Source of the DNA: Eubacteriales bacterium SKADARSKE-1
Lineage (GTDB): Bacteria > Bacillota > Clostridia > Oscillospirales > Acutalibacteraceae
Reading direction: 5' to 3'
Assembly (NCBI GenBank): GCA_030920305.1
Contig: JARLUB010000004.1
Location: 43,558-107,557 of the forward strand
Length of the DNA: 64,000 bases
Both the position numbers and the translations under genes were made by a program. Below are positions 14,185 to 55,336 of this stretch, piece by piece. Position 1 is the stretch's first letter; each line of letters starts with the position of its first letter. The notes beneath the pieces were generated by a model. It saw only the letters and a list, made by a program, of their open reading frames with translations. It searched no databases and had not been told where the DNA came from.

Positions 14185-15966
14185 ATGTCTGAAAATATGG
14201 CGGGCCTTAAAAGAACAAATTATTGTGGTGAATTGGGCCTTAACGATGCTGGAAAAGAAGTTGTAGTTTGTGGTTGGGCACAAAGACAGCGAGACTTAGG
14301 ACAGCTTATATTTATAGATTTAAGAGACAGAACCGGGATTGTTCAATTAGCATTTTGTGAATCTTTAAATAAGGAAGTTTTTGATAAAGCGTTTAGTGTG
14401 CGTTCAGAGTTTGTCCTTTGTGCTAAAGGTATAGTTCGTGAGCGTTCTTCTAAAAACTTGCAAATAAAAACTGGTGAAATTGAAATTGAAGTATCGGATT
14501 TAAGAATCCTTTCAAAATCAGAGACACCGCCGTTTGAAATAGTGACTGATTCAAACGTTAACGAAGAGTTGCGTTTAAAATATAGATATCTTGATTTGCG
14601 CCGGCCAGACGTTCAAGATAAAATTATACAAAGACATAAAATAGTAAAAATCGCAAGAGATTATTTTGATGGAAATGGATTTATAGAAATAGAGACACCG
14701 ATACTTATAAAGTCAACGCCTGAAGGGGCCCGAGACTATTTGGTGCCTTCTAGAGTTTTCCCGGGAAATTTTTTCGCACTTCCTCAATCGCCGCAGCTTT
14801 ATAAGCAGATTTCAATGATATCTGGGTTCGACAAGTATTTTCAGGTAGCAAAGTGCTTTCGCGATGAAGATTTGAGAGCACAACGGCAGCCAGAATTTAC
14901 TCAGCTCGATATGGAGATGTCTTTTGTTGACTGCGAAGATGTGATGGGTGTGGCGGAAGGCTTTTTAAAAAAGGTCTATAGAGAGATTTTAAACATAGAA
15001 CTTACCACACCTTTTTTAAGAATGCCTTACAATGAAGCAATGGAGCGGTTTGGATCAGATAAACCTGATTTGAGGTTTGGTTTAGAATTGGTAGATTTAA
15101 CAGACAGTTTGAAAAATACTGAGTTCAAGGTTTTTTCGGGAGCTATTGCCAACGGCGGCTCAGTTAGAGCCATAAACGTTAAGAACGCTGCTTCAAAAGT
15201 TTCAAGAAAAGAAATAGATAAACTGACAGAATGGATAAAAGCATATGGCGCTAAGGGCTTGGCCTGGACTAAATTAAATGAAGACGGCAGTTCTAGCTCT
15301 TCGTATGAAAAGTTTTTATCAGAAAATGAGTGCAAAGCAATTAGAAATACAGTAGGCGCTCAAAATGGTGATGTAATTTTCATGGTAGCAGATTCTAAAA
15401 ACAAAGTGGTGTTTGACAGTTTAGGAGCATTGCGCTGTGAATTGGCAGAACGCCTTGATTTGATAGACAAGTCTAAACCAAACTTTTTGTGGGTTGTGGA
15501 TTTTCCTATGTTTGAGTATGATGAAGAGGAAGGTCGCTTTGTTGCGATGCACCATCCGTTTACTCACCCAAAAGATGAAGATATAGAAAAAATAGAAAAA
15601 GATCCAGCAGCGGTTAGGGCTAAAGCTTACGATATTGTTTTAAATGGCAATGAAATTGGCGGTGGGTCAATTAGAATAAATAGCTCAGAGCTACAAGAAA
15701 AAATGTTTAAAGCTTTAGGGTTTACTGAAGAAAGTGCAAGAGAGAAATTTGGCTTTTTAGTAGATGCATTTAAGTTTGGAGCACCGCCGCATGGGGGTCT
15801 TGCTTTTGGACTTGATAGGCTAGTTATGTTAATGCTAGATTGTTCTAGTATTCGTGATGTTATAGCTTTCCCGAAAGTTGCAACTTCAGCAGAACTTATG
15901 AGCCAAGCTCCGGGAGCTGTTGACAAAAAGCAATTAGATGAACTAAAATTAAAAATTAGTGAATAA
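14185..15966 (+). CDS. aspS: Aspartate--tRNA ligase
   Basis: Contains FRDEDLRAQRQPEFTQLDMEMSF, GNEIGGGSIRI and GLAFGLDRLVML. It starts 12 nt after hisS. Confidence 0.95.
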   Translation: MSENMAGLKRTNYCGELGLNDAGKEVVVCGWAQRQRDLGQLIFIDLRDRTGIVQLAFCESLNKEVFDKAFSVRSEFVLCAKGIVRERSSKNLQIKTGEIEIEVSDLRILSKSETPPFEIVTDSNVNEELRLKYRYLDLRRPDVQDKIIQRHKIVKIARDYFDGNGFIEIETPILIKSTPEGARDYLVPSRVFPGNFFALPQSPQLYKQISMISGFDKYFQVAKCFRDEDLRAQRQPEFTQLDMEMSFVDCEDVMGVAEGFLKKVYREILNIELTTPFLRMPYNEAMERFGSDKPDLRFGLELVDLTDSLKNTEFKVFSGAIANGGSVRAINVKNAASKVSRKEIDKLTEWIKAYGAKGLAWTKLNEDGSSSSSYEKFLSENECKAIRNTVGAQNGDVIFMVADSKNKVVFDSLGALRCELAERLDLIDKSKPNFLWVVDFPMFEYDEEEGRFVAMHHPFTHPKDEDIEKIEKDPAAVRAKAYDIVLNGNEIGGGSIRINSSELQEKMFKALGFTEESAREKFGFLVDAFKFGAPPHGGLAFGLDRLVMLMLDCSSIRDVIAFPKVATSAELMSQAPGAVDKKQLDELKLKISE

Positions 15967-16030
15967 TATTCAAAATCTAAATTCATATTTCTAGTCTAAG
16001 ACTAACTTATAATCTATGAGAAAATTGTGA

Positions 16031-16073
16031 GGCGCCGCGAAAGTGCGAACAAAGTGAGCGCGAAAGTGGCGCC
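16031..16073 (+). repeat. GC-rich intergenic element, copy A (outer palindromic arms enclosing GCGAAAGTGC ... GCGAAAGT)
   Basis: Sequence is ggcgcc gcgaaagtgc gaacaaagtgagc gcgaaagt ggcgcc, followed by attatt. Confidence 0.8.
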
Positions 16074-16169
16074 ATTATTAAAAAGCAAGCTTTTAGCTGG
16101 TATGAAACTTAGAAATACAGTTAAATGGGGTTGCTACCAGCTTATTATTTTTTCAGTATAGAGGTTTTT

Positions 16170-16505
16170 ATGAAAGTTGCTGTTGTTGGCTCAAGAGGGC
16201 TCAATTTAGATATTGGCAAGCACATTCCCAAAATCACAACACTAATTATTACCGGTGGAGCGAAGGGAATTGATGAATTAGCAGAAAATTATGCAGATGA
16301 AAAACATATTCCTAAGCTTATAATAAGGCCAGAATACAACAAATATGGCAAAGCTGCACCACTTATAAGAACCAAAGCAATAATAGAAAAATCGGATCTT
16401 ATTATTGTATTTTGGGACGGAGAATCAAAAGGAACTCAATATGCAATAAAATACGCGACCTCATTAGGCAAAAAAATAATATTACATAAAATATTAAATG
16501 TTTAA
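16170..16505 (+). CDS. SLOG/DUF2493-like small Rossmann-fold protein
   Basis: MKVAVVGSRG...IITGGAKGIDELAENYA...IVFWDGESKGTQYAIKYA fits the family. The internal ATG at 16170 is preceded by 'gaggt'. Confidence 0.65.
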   Translation: MKVAVVGSRGLNLDIGKHIPKITTLIITGGAKGIDELAENYADEKHIPKLIIRPEYNKYGKAAPLIRTKAIIEKSDLIIVFWDGESKGTQYAIKYATSLGKKIILHKILNV

Positions 16506-21607: not shown

Positions 21608-21622
21608 ACAAAATATTCTTAA

Positions 21623-21666
21623 AAAACCTCTGTGTTTTACTAAATACAGAGGTTTTTGTTTTTTTC
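21623..21666 (+). terminator. Rho-independent terminator after comFC
   Basis: The stem is aaaacctctgt / acagaggtttt with a long T-run. Confidence 0.85.
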
Positions 21667-23593: not shown

Positions 23594-23617
23594 GGTTATA
23601 AAAGTAATTGAAACAGG

Positions 23618-23669
23618 GTTGCGCCCCGCGAAAGTGCTGCTGAAAGTCAGCGCGGAAGTGGGGCGCAAC
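23618..23669 (+). repeat. GC-rich intergenic element, copy B
   Basis: Sequence is gttgcgcccc gcgaaagtgc tgctgaaagtcagc gcggaagt ggggcgcaac, followed by tttatt. Confidence 0.8.
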
Positions 23670-23693
23670 TTTATTATTGTGGAAAATTAATAT

Positions 23694-26884: not shown

Positions 26885-26932
26885 AAAAAAAGAGCTAGCA
26901 TACAATTTTATATGTATGCTAGCTCTTTTTTT
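26885..26932 (+). terminator. Rho-independent terminator after ppk2
   Basis: The 13-bp stem agagctagcatac / gtatgctagctct is followed by a T-run. Confidence 0.85.
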
Positions 26933-27093
26933 ACGGCTTGCTTTTGCATGCGGCAGATTGCCGCTGATAATACACGATCTAAGTTTTTTCGAGAGGTTGA
27001 GTTATTTTGCTCACGATACAACTTGAACCAAGAAGCGGAAAGAAAAAAGTTTCATATTAAGATTAGTGTGCAGGTTGATTGCGGTGTCACACT

Positions 27094-27136
27094 GCCGCCG
27101 CGGAAGTACTCGCGTAGTGAGTGCGGAAGTGGCGCT
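27094..27136 (+). repeat. GC-rich intergenic element, degenerate copy C
   Basis: Sequence is gccgcc gcggaagtac tcgcgtagtgagt gcggaagt ggcgc, followed by taaactttttt. Confidence 0.6.
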
Positions 27137-27144
27137 AAACTTTT

Positions 27145-27750
27145 TTATGCAGAAGGAGGCTTACATCCGCAATAGTTTTGACGGTATAAGTTATATTTTT
27201 TTGATAATTCGATAGACTGTTTATATCCAGCTTTTTTCTTAAAATCAGAAACTAAATAGTTAACACCATACTCAGCGGCTAATTTTTGGCCAATATTATT
27301 TAGTTTTTGGGCGTTTTTATAAGGGCTAACCGATAATGTCGTACAAAAATAATCAACACCTAATTTTTTTGCAAGTTCTGCAGTTCTTTGAAGTCTTAGT
27401 TCATAACAAATTGAGCATCGGTGCCCGCCTTCTTTTTCATTAATAAAGTCTTTAGTGGCCCGGTTAAAAGTTTCATGATCATATTCTGAACAGATCAATT
27501 TAACAGATTTTTCTACCCCCATAAGAGATAAAAGTTTTTCAAGCTCAAATTTTCGTTTATTATATTCTTCTTCAGGAAATGTGTTGGGGTTATAATAAAA
27601 AACAGTTATATTAAAAAATGAAAGTAAATATTTTAAAACATAGCTGCTGCAAGGTGCGCAGCAGCTGTGTAACAATAATGCGGGTTTCATCTTATTTTCT
27701 TTTATTTTTTCAATTAATAAATCAAGTTCTTTTTGATAGTCCCGTTGCAC
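27145..27750 (-). CDS. queH: Epoxyqueuosine reductase QueH (DUF208)
   Basis: Contains LLLHSCCAPCSSYVL and C-terminal YRQNYCGC. Confidence 0.9.
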   Translation of the reverse strand: MQRDYQKELDLLIEKIKENKMKPALLLHSCCAPCSSYVLKYLLSFFNITVFYYNPNTFPEEEYNKRKFELEKLLSLMGVEKSVKLICSEYDHETFNRATKDFINEKEGGHRCSICYELRLQRTAELAKKLGVDYFCTTLSVSPYKNAQKLNNIGQKLAAEYGVNYLVSDFKKKAGYKQSIELSKKYNLYRQNYCGCKPPSA

Positions 27751-45307: not shown

Positions 45308-45344
45308 AAAAGATGAAAGTGCTAAATTAGCACTTTCATCTTTT
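45308..45344. terminator. Hairpin terminator abutting the ylmC stop codon
   Basis: The stem is aaaagatgaaagtgc / agcactttcatctttt. It is made of inverted GAAAGTGC units. Confidence 0.8.
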
Positions 45345-48167: not shown

Positions 48168-48232
48168 AAAAACTCGAGTGGTCCACTTTCGTGCCATTTT
48201 ATTAGCACTTTCGTGGGGCGCTCGAGTTTTTT
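48168..48232 (-). repeat. GC-rich intergenic element, copy D (reverse orientation); a probable bidirectional terminator between convergent genes
   Basis: Sequence is aaaaactcgag tggtccactttcgtgcc attttatt agcactttcgtggggcg ctcgagtttttt. Confidence 0.75.
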
Positions 48233-50651: not shown

Positions 50652-50757
50652 AAGAAACCCTCTGTTTTTATTTACATTATATTAAACAAAAACAGAAGGT
50701 TTTGTCAGGTTATGTGAGTTTTGTGTCAACTGCACTTTCGAGCATTATTATACATAG

Positions 50758-50788
50758 AAAACCGTACCAAGATAGATGGTACGGTTTT
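50758..50788 (-). terminator. Rho-independent terminator
   Basis: The stem is aaaaccgtacc / ggtacggtttt. Confidence 0.75.
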
Positions 50789-51708: not shown

Positions 51709-51941
51709 CCTTTAAATTTTTTATTATAATTCTTGTTGTTCATAAAATTTTCTTATTGCAAGAATTACATTTTCTATTTTATTTACTTTTTTTAAGGATT
51801 ATTACCGATCTTTATAAAATATATTTTAATTTTGTTTCTATTTTACGTTGCCGTATGTTCATACTAATAATGACGATTACAGGTTATAGTAAAAGTATGA
51901 TTACAGAGATTTAATGTAGATGCTATGACCTAAAAGGCAAA

Positions 51942-51986
51942 GTGCACCGCGCAAGTGCTAGCAAAGCTAGCGCGAAAGTGGTGCAC
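51942..51986 (+). repeat. GC-rich intergenic element, copy F
   Basis: Sequence is gtgcacc gcgcaagtgc tagcaaagctagc gcgaaagt ggtgcac. Confidence 0.8.
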
Positions 51987-51993
51987 AATAAAA

Positions 51994-52025
51994 ATGGTTA
52001 AAACAAATCAAGTTGTTTTAACCAT
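51994..52025 (-). terminator. Rho-independent terminator of the acc/fab-like operon
   Basis: The stem atggttaaaacaa / ttgttttaaccat abuts the accA stop codon, with a T-run on the minus strand. Confidence 0.8.
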
Positions 52026-52026
52026 T

Positions 52027-52809
52027 TTAAAATTTTCTAAATTTCTCATATCGCCTATTTAGCATTTCAGAAACAGGCATATTTTTATATTTATTAAGTT
52101 TTTCTAAAATAAGCTTTTTTATATTTTGAGCTACAGATTTTGGGTTTTCATTCATATTTTGTGGCTCTTTAATTATATTGTCAATAATTCCATATTCCAT
52201 TAAGTTGTGAGCTGTGTTTTTAAGTAAAGCAGCGGCTTCTTTTTCGCGGCTGGAATCTTTCCATAAGATATTAGCGCAAGCTTTTGGAGAAATCACTCCA
52301 AAAGTTGAGTTTTCTAGCATGATCATTTCATCTGCTACAGAAATAGCAAGAGCGCCGCCACTTCCTCCAGACCCAATAAATATACTGATTATCGGAACTT
52401 TAAGATACATCATTTCCATTAAATTATTAGCAATGGCAGAGTTTTGCCCGCGCTCTTCCGCAGAATCACCAGGAAATGCACCAATTGTATCAACAAAAGT
52501 GATAATCGGCCTATTAAATTTTTCTGCTTGTTTCATAGCACGAAGAGCTTTTCGGTAGCCCTCAGGGCAATTCATAGAATGATGATAAATTGCATCGTCA
52601 CGAATAGTTTTTCCACGCATTTGCCCAATAATAGTAACCGGAATATTGTTTAGCATACCTATTCCAGTTAAAATTGATTCGTCGTCCCCAAAAAATCTAT
52701 CGCCATGCATTTCTATAAAATTAGAAAATATTAAATTAATATAATCAAGAGCGTTTGGGCGAGTGAAAATAATAGGATTATCTAATGGTTGCTCAACTAT
52801 CTTTTCCAT
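52027..52809 (-). CDS. accA: Acetyl-CoA carboxylase carboxyltransferase alpha subunit
   Basis: Contains ITFVDTIGAFPGDSAEERGQ and IGSGGSGGALAI. Confidence 0.9.
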   Translation of the reverse strand: MEKIVEQPLDNPIIFTRPNALDYINLIFSNFIEMHGDRFFGDDESILTGIGMLNNIPVTIIGQMRGKTIRDDAIYHHSMNCPEGYRKALRAMKQAEKFNRPIITFVDTIGAFPGDSAEERGQNSAIANNLMEMMYLKVPIISIFIGSGGSGGALAISVADEMIMLENSTFGVISPKACANILWKDSSREKEAAALLKNTAHNLMEYGIIDNIIKEPQNMNENPKSVAQNIKKLILEKLNKYKNMPVSEMLNRRYEKFRKF

Positions 52810-54817
52810 AAAATCTCCTCTCGTGAATTTTTAAGATTTTGCTAATTATACCTTTTAACTCATTTTTATCAGCTACAATATCTACCATGCCATGCTTTTG
52901 TGCATATTCTGCCGTTTGAAAAGTATCGGGAAGTTTTTTATTTAACGTTTCTTCAATGATTCTTCTGCCGGAAAACCCAAAAACAGAGCCACTTTCTGCA
53001 ATTATTATGTCCGACAGAGAAGCAAAACTAGCAGATACTCCACCAAGGGTAGGGTTAGTTATAATTGATATATAAAGTAAGCCACAATCACTATGCTTTT
53101 TTACTATTGCGGCGGTTTTAGCCATTTGCAAAAGTGAAAAAATGCCTTCTTGCATACGGGCGCCACCTGAAATGCAAACACCTATAACGGGTAATTGTTT
53201 GTCAATAGCTAATTCAAAAGCTTTTGTAACTTTTTCACCTACAACCCGGCCCATAGACCCCATCATGAAATTGCCATCCATGGCAAAAAACACAACATCT
53301 ACACCCAAAATTTTTGCAGTTCCATATATAACAGCTTCATTTTCAGATGTTGAATTCATAGCGTGATTAAGTTTTTCACTGTATCTTTCAAAATCTATGA
53401 TATCGTGTGAAATCATATCTTTATCATATTCAATAAAACTGTTTTTATCTGTTAGCAAAGCTACTCGTTCTCTTGCTGATATATATTTCTTATTATAAGG
53501 TTTAAATAAATTCATAAAATTTGTATTGTGAGAATGATTTTTAAAAGTTTCGTTGTTTAAAATTTGTTTGTGAGTTTCTATATTTGTGCCAATACCGTCT
53601 ATTTCAAGTTGATTAAGTGCAGATAACATTTTTTTGAAAGCTAATTTTCTTGTGTTGCCATGAACAATTAATTTACCCAATAGTGAATCATAAAACACAG
53701 GGACATTATAGCCTTCATATAAGAAGGTATCGAATCTAGTGCTTTCAGTTTTTGGAATGATTAGCTTTTTTATAATGTTTTCAAAATTAGCATTTTGAAA
53801 ATTGATTCTACATTCAATTGCAAACCCAGAAAATTTTATTTGAGGCTGAGTTATAGGCAAAGGGTTTCCAGCAGCAATTAAAATTTGTAATTTTATTAAA
53901 TTAAGGTTAGTTACCATTTCTGTTATGGCATATTCAACCTGCAGCCGGCAATTCATTTCCATAAAATAAAAAGAGCCGGTACTATCCATTAAAAATTCTA
54001 AAGTGCCAGCACCAACATATCCGGTTTTTTGAATAGCATTTATACACATGCTGAAAAGTTCTTGACGTTTGATATTGTTTATCTTAGCGCAGGGGGTCTC
54101 TTCGATTATTTTTTGATTGTTAACTTGAACAGAGCAATCTCGCTCACCAAGGCACAAAACGTTGCCTTGTTTATCTGCTAACATTTGTACTTCTACGTGG
54201 CTAACCTCTGTCAAATATTTTTCAATATATATTTTATTGCTATTAAAAAAATTTTTTCCTTCATCAACTGCAAAAATAATAGCTTTTTCTAAATCTTCTT
54301 CTGCGTGTACAATTTTAATACCTTTTCCGCCGCCACCGCAGCGAAGCTTTATAATTATTGGATAGCCTATTTTTTTAGCAATGCTCTTTATTTTAGATAT
54401 ATCATTTTCTGCGAATTCACCCGGTATAACTGGAACCCCTAAATTTTTCATAGTTTCTTTTGCAATGATTTTATCGCCCATATTTTTTAATATTTCAGGT
54501 GGTGGGCCAATAAAACAAATATCGTTTTCTTGGCATAAAGCGGCAAATTCATAATTTTCAGATAAAAAGCCGTAACCTGGGTGAATGGCTTGAGCACCAC
54601 AAGCTACAGCTATTGAAACAATGGCTTTCATATTAAGGTAGCTTTCTTTAGCGGGTGATGCGCCAATGCAATAGCTTTCGTCAGCCAACTTTGTATGTAG
54701 CGAATTTTTATCAGCTTCTGAATATACAGCAACGGTTTTGATGCCTAGGGAATGGCAGACTTCTATTATTTTTACTGCAATTTCGCCTCTATTTGCAATA
54801 AGTATTTTAGAAAACAT
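52793..54817 (-). CDS. accC/accD: Fusion protein: biotin carboxylase (AccC) plus carboxyltransferase beta (AccD-like, no N-terminal Zn-ribbon)
   Basis: The N-terminal ~440 aa are MFSKILIANRGEIAVKIIE...GGGGKGIKIV...EMNCRLQVEY. The C-terminal ~230 aa are ARERVALLTD...MGSMGRVVGEKVT...GGARMQEG...GGVSASFA. Confidence 0.85.
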   Translation of the reverse strand: MFSKILIANRGEIAVKIIEVCHSLGIKTVAVYSEADKNSLHTKLADESYCIGASPAKESYLNMKAIVSIAVACGAQAIHPGYGFLSENYEFAALCQENDICFIGPPPEILKNMGDKIIAKETMKNLGVPVIPGEFAENDISKIKSIAKKIGYPIIIKLRCGGGGKGIKIVHAEEDLEKAIIFAVDEGKNFFNSNKIYIEKYLTEVSHVEVQMLADKQGNVLCLGERDCSVQVNNQKIIEETPCAKINNIKRQELFSMCINAIQKTGYVGAGTLEFLMDSTGSFYFMEMNCRLQVEYAITEMVTNLNLIKLQILIAAGNPLPITQPQIKFSGFAIECRINFQNANFENIIKKLIIPKTESTRFDTFLYEGYNVPVFYDSLLGKLIVHGNTRKLAFKKMLSALNQLEIDGIGTNIETHKQILNNETFKNHSHNTNFMNLFKPYNKKYISARERVALLTDKNSFIEYDKDMISHDIIDFERYSEKLNHAMNSTSENEAVIYGTAKILGVDVVFFAMDGNFMMGSMGRVVGEKVTKAFELAIDKQLPVIGVCISGGARMQEGIFSLLQMAKTAAIVKKHSDCGLLYISIITNPTLGGVSASFASLSDIIIAESGSVFGFSGRRIIEETLNKKLPDTFQTAEYAQKHGMVDIVADKNELKGIISKILKIHERRFYGKDS

Positions 54818-54864
54818 TTTGGTTTCACCACCTATACATTGAATATTTAAAAGTCAAATACAGA

Positions 54865-54903
54865 GCCGCTTTCACGCAAACTCTATTTGCACTTTCGCGG
54901 CGC
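54865..54903 (-). repeat. GC-rich element, copy G, lying inside the operon between accB and accC/D
   Basis: The minus-strand reading is gcgcc gcgaaagtgc aaatagagtttgc gtgaaagc ggc. Confidence 0.7.
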
Positions 54904-54910
54904 ATTAATT

Positions 54911-55336
54911 TTAAATTTTACTATATTTAAATAAAGGCTGAGAATATTCAATAATATCACCATTTTTTGCACAAACTTCAGTGATTTCTCCGTCTTCTTT
55001 GGCCTGGATTTCCGTAAAAGTTTTCATAGCTTCTAAAACGCACAGCGTATCGCCTTTTTTAAACTTCTGCCCTTCTTTTACAATGTTTCCTTTATTCATA
55101 TATTCAGTATCATAAAACACCCCAACCATAGGGGACATTATAGTACATAATTCTTTTTGTTCCAAAGTAGTGTTATCAGAACCATTATTTTTATTGGCCC
55201 CTTTTTCTACTCGATATTTTTTAGTATCATCTAATAGCTCAACAGCACTTAAATTATATTTATTTAATACATCAGCTAACTGTTTTAATTTTTTTACATC
55301 TTCTGATATTTTTGCATCCTTTTCAGCTTTATTCAC
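54911..55336 (-). CDS. accB: Biotin carboxyl carrier protein
   Basis: The biotinyl-Lys motif is CVLEAMKTFTEIQA in a C-terminal lipoyl-like domain. Confidence 0.85.
   Translation of the reverse strand: MNKAEKDAKISEDVKKLKQLADVLNKYNLSAVELLDDTKKYRVEKGANKNNGSDNTTLEQKELCTIMSPMVGVFYDTEYMNKGNIVKEGQKFKKGDTLCVLEAMKTFTEIQAKEDGEITEVCAKNGDIIEYSQPLFKYSKI

Follow-up and report, generated by a model that had tools for sequence, protein, structure and literature searches.

A lineage-restricted family of GC-rich extragenic palindromes with covarying stems and a conserved internal-loop module

The stretch of DNA analysed here (64,000 nt, in the following the window) corresponds to C18:43558-107557 of a 1.38-Mb genome which is assembled in 23 contigs and 98% complete. 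It contains six copies of a family of GC-rich palindromes with further copies elsewhere in the genome. The copies lie between genes and are biased towards gene 3' ends, they occur in either orientation, their stems covary, and the family is restricted to one lineage. It is best filed as a new extragenic palindromic repeat outside every named family, and it probably represents a new repeat of the REP type and not a new RNA gene. We give about even odds to the more specific reading that it is a REP-like dispersed palindrome which is kept as a terminator hairpin or as a hairpin stabilising transcript 3' ends. We infer from the features described below that the element has been mobile, that it has terminator or stabiliser activity and that its loop module has a role in recognition.

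The family had been proposed by an initial annotation of the window as a multi-copy group of GC-rich intergenic elements. All six main copies are present when the window is read directly, and their sequences read as described. A strict pattern requiring two units matched four times in the window compared with 0.00 matches expected from 100 shuffles. With a loose regular expression 17 clear copies were found in the whole genome, and the alignment of these copies (A1) was used to build a covariance model (R1). The model gives 26 matches at E<1e-3 and 28 matches at E<1 in the 1.38-Mb genome. All 28 are intergenic, and degenerate copies occur among them. The proposed family is therefore real, and it extends well beyond the six copies first listed (17 by pattern, 26–28 by model). 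The GC content of the copies is 45–67% compared with 33% for the window, which confirms the GC excess that had been noted. The hairpins are about 43–68 nt long. All copies are solitary, the tightest spacing being about 3 kb (C1:397956 and C1:400935).

Two further sequences in the window had been regarded as relatives of the family. The first is the terminator at 45308-45344, whose stem had been described as two inverted units. There, GAAAGTGC pairs with its own complement. This sequence has no R1 match, and it was rejected as a member, being an ordinary perfect AT-rich bidirectional terminator. The second, a presumed single-unit remnant at about position 50728, consists of one lone 9-mer. It was rejected as a degenerate copy; the heptamer CGAAAGT occurs at about chance frequency outside the family. 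The ordinary terminators of the window (26885-26932, 21622-21657, 45308-45344, 50758-50788, and 51991-52028) are long perfect AT-rich hairpins with A- and T-tracts on both sides, and they clearly differ from the GC-rich family.

The six window copies are flanked by housekeeping genes that have no relation to one another (aspS, PPK2, queH, a P-type ATPase gene, yfhO, and accB/accC). Copy A (16026..16079, core 16031-16073, plus strand; R1 67.2 bits; dG -25.2, z -4.7) is situated between aspS (14185-15966, plus strand) and a gene of the SLOG family (16125-16505, plus strand) and is sense to both. Copy B (23617..23671, core 23618-23669, plus strand; R1 63.3 bits; dG -38.7, z -6.6) has an outer stem of 15 bp. 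It is the sole hairpin between two convergent genes, the ends of which flank it at 23–24 nt on each side. Copy C (27089..27142, core 27094-27136, plus strand; R1 56.3 bits; z -2.3) is somewhat degenerate and abuts the stop of queH (27145-27750, minus strand), with a separate canonical AT-rich bidirectional terminator nearby at 26885-26932.

Copy D (48168..48232, model match 48173-48225, minus strand; R1 50.1 bits; dG -30.2, z -8.4) lies between the convergent P-type ATPase gene and yfhO. Both of its units read ACGAAAGTG, and its outer CTCGAG arms together with an A6/T5 flank give it the shape of a bidirectional terminator. Copy E (51938..51991, core 51942-51986, plus strand; R1 69.9 bits; dG -31.2, z -6.8) is located just past a separate canonical terminator hairpin (51991-52028) and is antisense to both of its minus-strand neighbour genes. 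Copy F (54856..54909, core 54865-54903, minus strand; R1 57.6 bits; dG -15.9, z -1.8) is intercistronic and occupies the 93-nt gap leading from accB (54911-55336, minus strand) to an accC-accD fusion (52793-54817, minus strand). It has no T-run. Copy F had been annotated as the one with an orientation different from its flanking genes; it is in fact sense to both acc genes, and the antisense copy is E (51942).

Single-sequence folding and also RNAalifold (22 copies) predict one long hairpin. The outer stem comprises 8–19 bp, of which the inner five pairs are usually GCGCC/GGCGC and the outer part is copy-specific. It is followed by a near-invariant module, 5'-CCGC-GNAA-GUGC...GCGC-GNAA-GUGG-3', whose two GNAA tetrads are opposed as a symmetric 4x4 purine internal loop; on each side, this loop is bordered by a C-G pair, next to which comes a G.U pair. 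The tetrads read GAAA, GGAA, or GCAA, rarely AAAA or AGAA. The inner stem of about 8 bp is variable in its apical half and ends in a purine-rich apical loop of 3–5 nt (AAA, GAA, GCAA, GCGA, or GAAA). The module has a pseudo-two-fold symmetry with GCGNAAGU opposite GCGNAAGU (G.U, C-G, 4x4 purine loop, G-C, U.G), and its 24 nt are 90–100% conserved while the stems drift. Hairpin energies across the copies range from -15 to -42 kcal/mol. In the window, four of the six copies are far more stable than shuffled sequences (z -4.7 to -8.4), copies C and F being weaker (-2.3 and -1.8).

The compensatory covariation that had been claimed for the arms is statistically supported. The proportion of paired cells in the alignment is 85.7–88.9% compared with 22–46% in slid controls, and 12–13 of 18–19 pairs have changed on both sides. 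There are 53 double-change cells as against about 15 in shuffles, and not one of 500 shuffles matched the observed covariation score. We also considered that the element was inserted into the loops of pre-existing host terminators. We rejected it as the sole explanation, since compensated changes are also found in the conserved arm (columns 7–9 with 46–48) and in the inner stem.

The initial annotation had described the conserved units as C-GNRA-G tetraloops. The units are indeed conserved in sequence, but the tetraloop fold is not established, as folding opposes the two units in the 4x4 loop. A four-way junction consisting of two C-GNAA-G mini-hairpins and a central hairpin is an equally good fit, pairing 88.6% of the cells compared with 88.9% for the long hairpin, and it uses the same bases because the module is symmetric. 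One double change (A18-U37) favours the long hairpin over the four-way junction, and the energy model prefers it as well. GNRA tetraloops in the form of mini-hairpins are a possible fold beside the long hairpin.

A structured RNA that functions from one strand could be a reason for such a conserved fold. The GNAA/GNAA loop and the G.U pairs would then form a module for RNA–protein or RNA–RNA recognition, for instance a signal for RNase III-type processing or a site that is bound in 3' UTRs. In 22 of 26 copies the GAAA strand is about 7 kcal/mol more stable as RNA than its complement, mainly because the conserved G.U pairs turn into C-A mismatches on the other strand. The conserved G.U pairs and the classical covariation also fit an RNA motif, as does copy F, which is sense in its operon and has no T-run. 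Nevertheless, in tandem-gene contexts eight copies are sense and nine are antisense, so that transcription would yield the UUUC strand at 9 of 17 copies. An orientation that is random in this way speaks against an RNA function bound to one strand. Moreover, no promoter for independent transcription is evident, and the motif has no match in Rfam even at E<=10 and is absent from all relatives searched. Taken together, we regard a strand-specific RNA as improbable, the least likely of the readings considered here.

The preferred reading is that of a REP-like palindrome kept at transcript ends. By hand count, 23 of the 28 copies are found at most about 60 nt away from a stop codon, so the placement of the elements between genes and usually just after stop codons stands as first described. 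Convergent intergenic regions contain 10 copies compared with 4.4 expected (p=0.008), the promoter-bearing divergent regions contain 1 copy compared with 6.3 expected (p=0.007), and regions between tandem genes contain 17 copies with about 17–19 expected. Genes were called by a simple longest-ORF procedure and single assignments may err; those for the six window copies were inspected visually.

The flanking sequences are enriched in A and T. In the element's own frame, A amounts to about 52% at positions -21 to -16 of the 5' flank and T to about 50% at positions +8 to +16 of the 3' flank, each compared with about 35% in the intergenic background and each exceeding it by more than 4 standard errors (hand calculation). 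The textbook shape of a bidirectional terminator is displayed by the copies at C1:457618 (A6-stem-T6), C1:178251, and C12:123903 and by copy D, and in tight convergent pairs such as that of copy B the family element is the sole hairpin. Every copy has the hairpin. A strict test demanding at least five T among the 9 nt that follow the stem was passed by 8 of 25 copies in sense and 6 of 25 in antisense direction compared with a background of 22%, which is not significant, and about half of the copies are missing a convincing T-run. Of the terminator or stabiliser role that had been suggested, the position (convergent excess) and the A/T flanks thus fit, but there is no significant excess of strict T-runs.

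Like bidirectional intrinsic terminators, the copies are GC-rich hairpins which are found tens of nucleotides from stop codons and often between convergent genes, and several of them have a 5' A-tract and a 3' T-tract. In contrast to these copies, intrinsic terminators do not normally belong to one sequence family that shares an invariant 24-nt module.

According to the preferred reading, the element would have spread through the genome as DNA, and copies would persist only where they cause little harm, that is directly behind genes, whichever way the copy is oriented. The GC-rich hairpin, which could form from either transcribed strand, would there serve as a transcript-end structure. Copies flanked by A- and T-tracts, notably those between convergent genes, could act as bidirectional factor-independent terminators. 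Elsewhere, for example in the acc operon (copy F), the hairpin might be a barrier to 3' exonucleases or a processing site. The invariant loop module would most likely be a recognition feature for whatever copies or maintains the element. The random orientation is expected of a DNA repeat or of a bidirectional hairpin. The reading accounts for the stems. Against it, copies C and E lie beside canonical terminators and are therefore dispensable as terminators at these sites, and neither the near-invariant module nor the G.U pairs on one strand find an explanation in a terminator role.

The family was searched for in other sequences. With the covariance model no copy was found in 40 genomes, of which 24 represent other genera of the same family and 16 represent further families of the order. 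In 400 genomes across the order the model gave one weak match only, which is not credible. This match, in a genome of a different family of the order (G136), was rejected as an unrelated 48-nt tandem repeat without hairpin architecture. The tandem repeat (L023 1504-1610) has 2.3 copies, lies downstream of a gene and contains GCACTTTCGCGG, the reverse complement of the 5' unit CCGCGAAAGTGC; this likeness is probably coincidental. Pattern scans yielded two chance matches in 185,579 species genomes, eight chance matches in JGI metagenomes, which lie in high-GC coding DNA without complementary arms, and zero matches in IMG/VR viral contigs. BLAST searches of phage and plasmid collections gave zero matches.

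In Rfam searches nothing overlapped any copy, neither at the gathering score nor at E<=10, in line with the initial view that this is not a named repeat or Rfam family. The sole match at the gathering score is an L10 leader elsewhere in the window. Full-text literature searches with sequence strings led to unrelated papers alone, in which the sequences matched by chance. Because there is no credible match in any collection searched, the family is private to this genus-level lineage and undescribed. To judge from these searches, its restricted occurrence agrees with a recent expansion within the lineage and not with an RNA of ancient origin.

The source of the genome, which is small and AT-rich, is probably an amoeba endosymbiont. 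It seems to resemble Ca. Vesiculincola pelomyxae in GC content, family placement, and bacteriocin operons. Ca. Vesiculincola pelomyxae is a vesicle-enclosed, spore-forming Clostridium living inside the anaerobic amoeba Pelomyxa schiedti (PMC10579272), and repeats go unmentioned in its description (PMC10579272).

No RAYT (Y1 HUH transposase, PF01797) was found in the 98%-complete genome; the control search matched 6 of 14 reference genomes. A TnpB-type nuclease was not found in the genome either. The only IS-type transposases are an rve on the small contig C6 and a DDE_Tnp_1 at C1:499 kb. In a self-BLAST of the genome no IS-like multi-copy genes were detected, the matches being rRNA operons, assembly overlaps, and paralogous surface/effector genes only. 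We rejected the possibility that the family is a MITE derived from a resident IS because the IS ends are AT-rich, unrelated and without GNAAGT units; the inverted repeats of a resident IS and the consistent target-site duplications of a MITE were not seen in the family.

A consistent target-site duplication or flanking direct repeat was not seen at the copies examined, and no paralogous empty sites were found in the genome. In relatives the acc genes are arranged as accB, an ORF of about 140–170 aa, and accC. Because this order differs from the locus of copy F, the relatives are uninformative on an orthologous empty site. That no mobilising enzyme, target-site duplication, empty paralogous site or presence/absence polymorphism was found speaks against the preferred reading.

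The self-BLAST also revealed redundancy of the assembly, as C1:491197-501211 is the same as C21:1-10015 and C2:4098-10103 the same as C1:318214-324219 (overlaps of 100%). The 7-kb contigs C3 and C4 are 86% identical, which suggests unresolved repeats or strain variants. Paralogs were found at C1:281154-283685, C17:113042-115130, and C12:285532-287613 and for C17:138539-140134 versus C17:152488-154581. They encode large secreted proline-rich or AAA-like proteins, which are not IS genes and possibly represent effector families.

Given the dispersed nature of the family, the copies could also be purely selfish or neutral, without any host function. The siting at 3' ends would then result from the purging of insertions elsewhere, and the complementarity of the stems would be kept by propagation or by a template-switch 'palindrome correction' and not by selection at each locus. 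A repeat private to one lineage with random orientation and decayed copies agrees with this explanation, as does the redundancy of some copies with neighbouring canonical terminators. In addition, the source is probably an intracellular symbiont (PMC10579272), where selfish repeats often build up. However, almost all copies possess a compensated stem variant of their own (53 versus about 15 double-change cells), and this would require many master lineages or a constraint at each locus. Template-switch correction should also close the GNAA/GNAA loop to Watson-Crick pairs, which is never seen, and the A/T-enriched flanks suggest use as terminators. Owing to the compensated variants, the unclosed loop and the A-/T-rich flanks, a neutral selfish repeat is disfavoured, and we consider it unlikely.

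The genome harbours other GC-rich repeats. A second family of about 10 copies has the form (C)TTAG[TA]G[CT]GCGAATT[GA] followed by a GC hairpin, for example CCGGCGTCACGCCGG or GCAGCGGCGCTTCGCCGCTCGC. Its copies were found outside the window at C1:323943(-), C1:193316(-), C1:157258(-), C7:2305, C7:3204, C12:216652, C12:171644(-), C12:91646(-), C18:31702, and C18:39460(-). One of them directly follows the 3' end of a tRNA and one is situated just upstream of an RBS and a GTG start. A possible third small family, likewise outside the window, comprises C1:46436-46477 and C20:28004-28041 with GCCGCACTATACCGCG[CT]GGCGCC in common.

Among known elements, the REP/BIME repeats of enterobacteria and pseudomonads are most similar in kind. 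REPs act as stabilisers of mRNA 3' ends and as weak terminators, and REPINs are mobilised by RAYT transposases. Both REP/BIME and the present family are short GC-rich imperfect palindromes with tens of copies, are strictly extragenic and lineage-specific, and are concentrated downstream of genes and in the gaps of convergent gene pairs, with both orientations occurring. The family shares with REPs and REPINs the short, many-copy extragenic palindrome, but its genome holds no cognate RAYT gene, and the copies do not form inverted doublets or BIME clusters. Furthermore, REP stems are conserved in sequence, whereas in the family the stems covary and the internal-loop module is conserved, and the GTAG-type 5' tetranucleotide of REPs is lacking. 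The REP-type reading is suggested by the strictly extragenic location, the preference for 3' ends and convergent genes, the avoidance of promoters, the random orientation, the lineage restriction, the decay of copies, and the presence of other hairpin families.

The family can also be set beside the Correia elements of Neisseria, the pneumococcal BOX and RUP elements, and the enterobacterial ERIC sequences. These are lineage-restricted hairpin repeats which affect termination, processing, or stability, and like the family they are non-coding and fold as RNA hairpins. They are, however, longer (about 100–150 nt or more) and have terminal inverted repeats and target-site duplications, neither of which is found in the family, and they do not have the symmetric purine internal loop that characterises it.

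The units of the module bear a further resemblance to structures formed by DNA. The sequence d(GCGNNAGC) is an extraordinarily stable DNA mini-hairpin which occurs at phage and plasmid priming sites (PMC13037366). Compared with d(GCGNNAGC) and d(GCGNAGC) (Hirao et al.; PMC13037366), the units GCGAAAGT, GCGGAAGT, and GCGCAAGT match GCGNNAG-. The positions of the sheared G...A pair are kept in the family units, the inner C-G pair is kept in GCGNAAGT, and the central loops C-GAA-G and C-GCAA-G of the family are of the same type. On the other hand, the outer closing pair is G.T in the family and G-C in d(GCGNNAGC), in the predicted minimum-energy fold one unit is paired with the other, and a role as a priming site is not indicated for the family.

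It could also be asked whether the element functions at the DNA level. The GAAA strand, folded as single-stranded DNA or in a cruciform, would be bound by a putative host protein, possibly in dimeric form on the pseudo-two-fold module GCGAAAGT x GCGAAAGT, in the form of the long hairpin or of two GCGNAAGT mini-hairpins. The function would be chromosomal, candidates being the marking of domains, priming or pausing, and recombination. An orientation independent of transcription, a module that is 90–100% conserved while the stems drift, G.T wobbles conserved on one strand only, and units one base away from the d(GCGNNAGC) mini-hairpin of priming sites (PMC13037366) are consistent with such a site. 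The distribution over the contigs is uneven as well, with 18 copies on C1, 6 on C18, and 3 on C12 as against a single copy in the remaining 395 kb (chi-square p=3e-4), which lends weak support. Over these unordered contigs, however, the domain pattern is weak.

The gene dnaA is located on C1 at about 99 kb, and a terminus-type switch of the GC skew is found on C12 at about 180 kb. The GC skew is slightly positive at C1:0-60 kb though this region lies left of dnaA, which may reflect an inversion or a misjoin. The orientation of the genome-wide copies shows no bias with respect to the replication strand or local GC skew (12:16), which speaks against a DNA-level site. Nor was a partner protein identified, the G.T of the outer unit pair weakens the mini-hairpin, and the preference for 3' ends and the convergent excess are explained more simply. 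A function as a DNA-level site thus seems quite unlikely to us.

A related but more far-reaching proposal, which we judge very unlikely, is that the module is the dedicated site of a probably dimeric protein acting on folded single-stranded nucleic acid of one strand and that the roughly 26 copies are domain-biased landmarks maintained by the host. If this were true, the family would belong to a new nucleic-acid/protein system without a RAYT-type partner and would not be REP-like debris. It would mean that an intracellular, spore-forming Clostridium possesses structured DNA or RNA landmarks.

On the preferred reading, the family would provide a clean REP-like example in a reduced AT-rich Clostridia genome, with a conserved internal loop and covarying stems and without RAYT. 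For annotation the copies would be useful as marks of 3' ends which could otherwise be mistaken for small-RNA genes, and they may serve as a strain-typing or evolutionary marker for the lineage. The family also offers a small test case of how dispersed DNA repeats can come to covary although no RNA function is tied to one strand. Should the loop module turn out to be recognised by a protein, it would point to a new system of repeat maintenance or chromosome marking.
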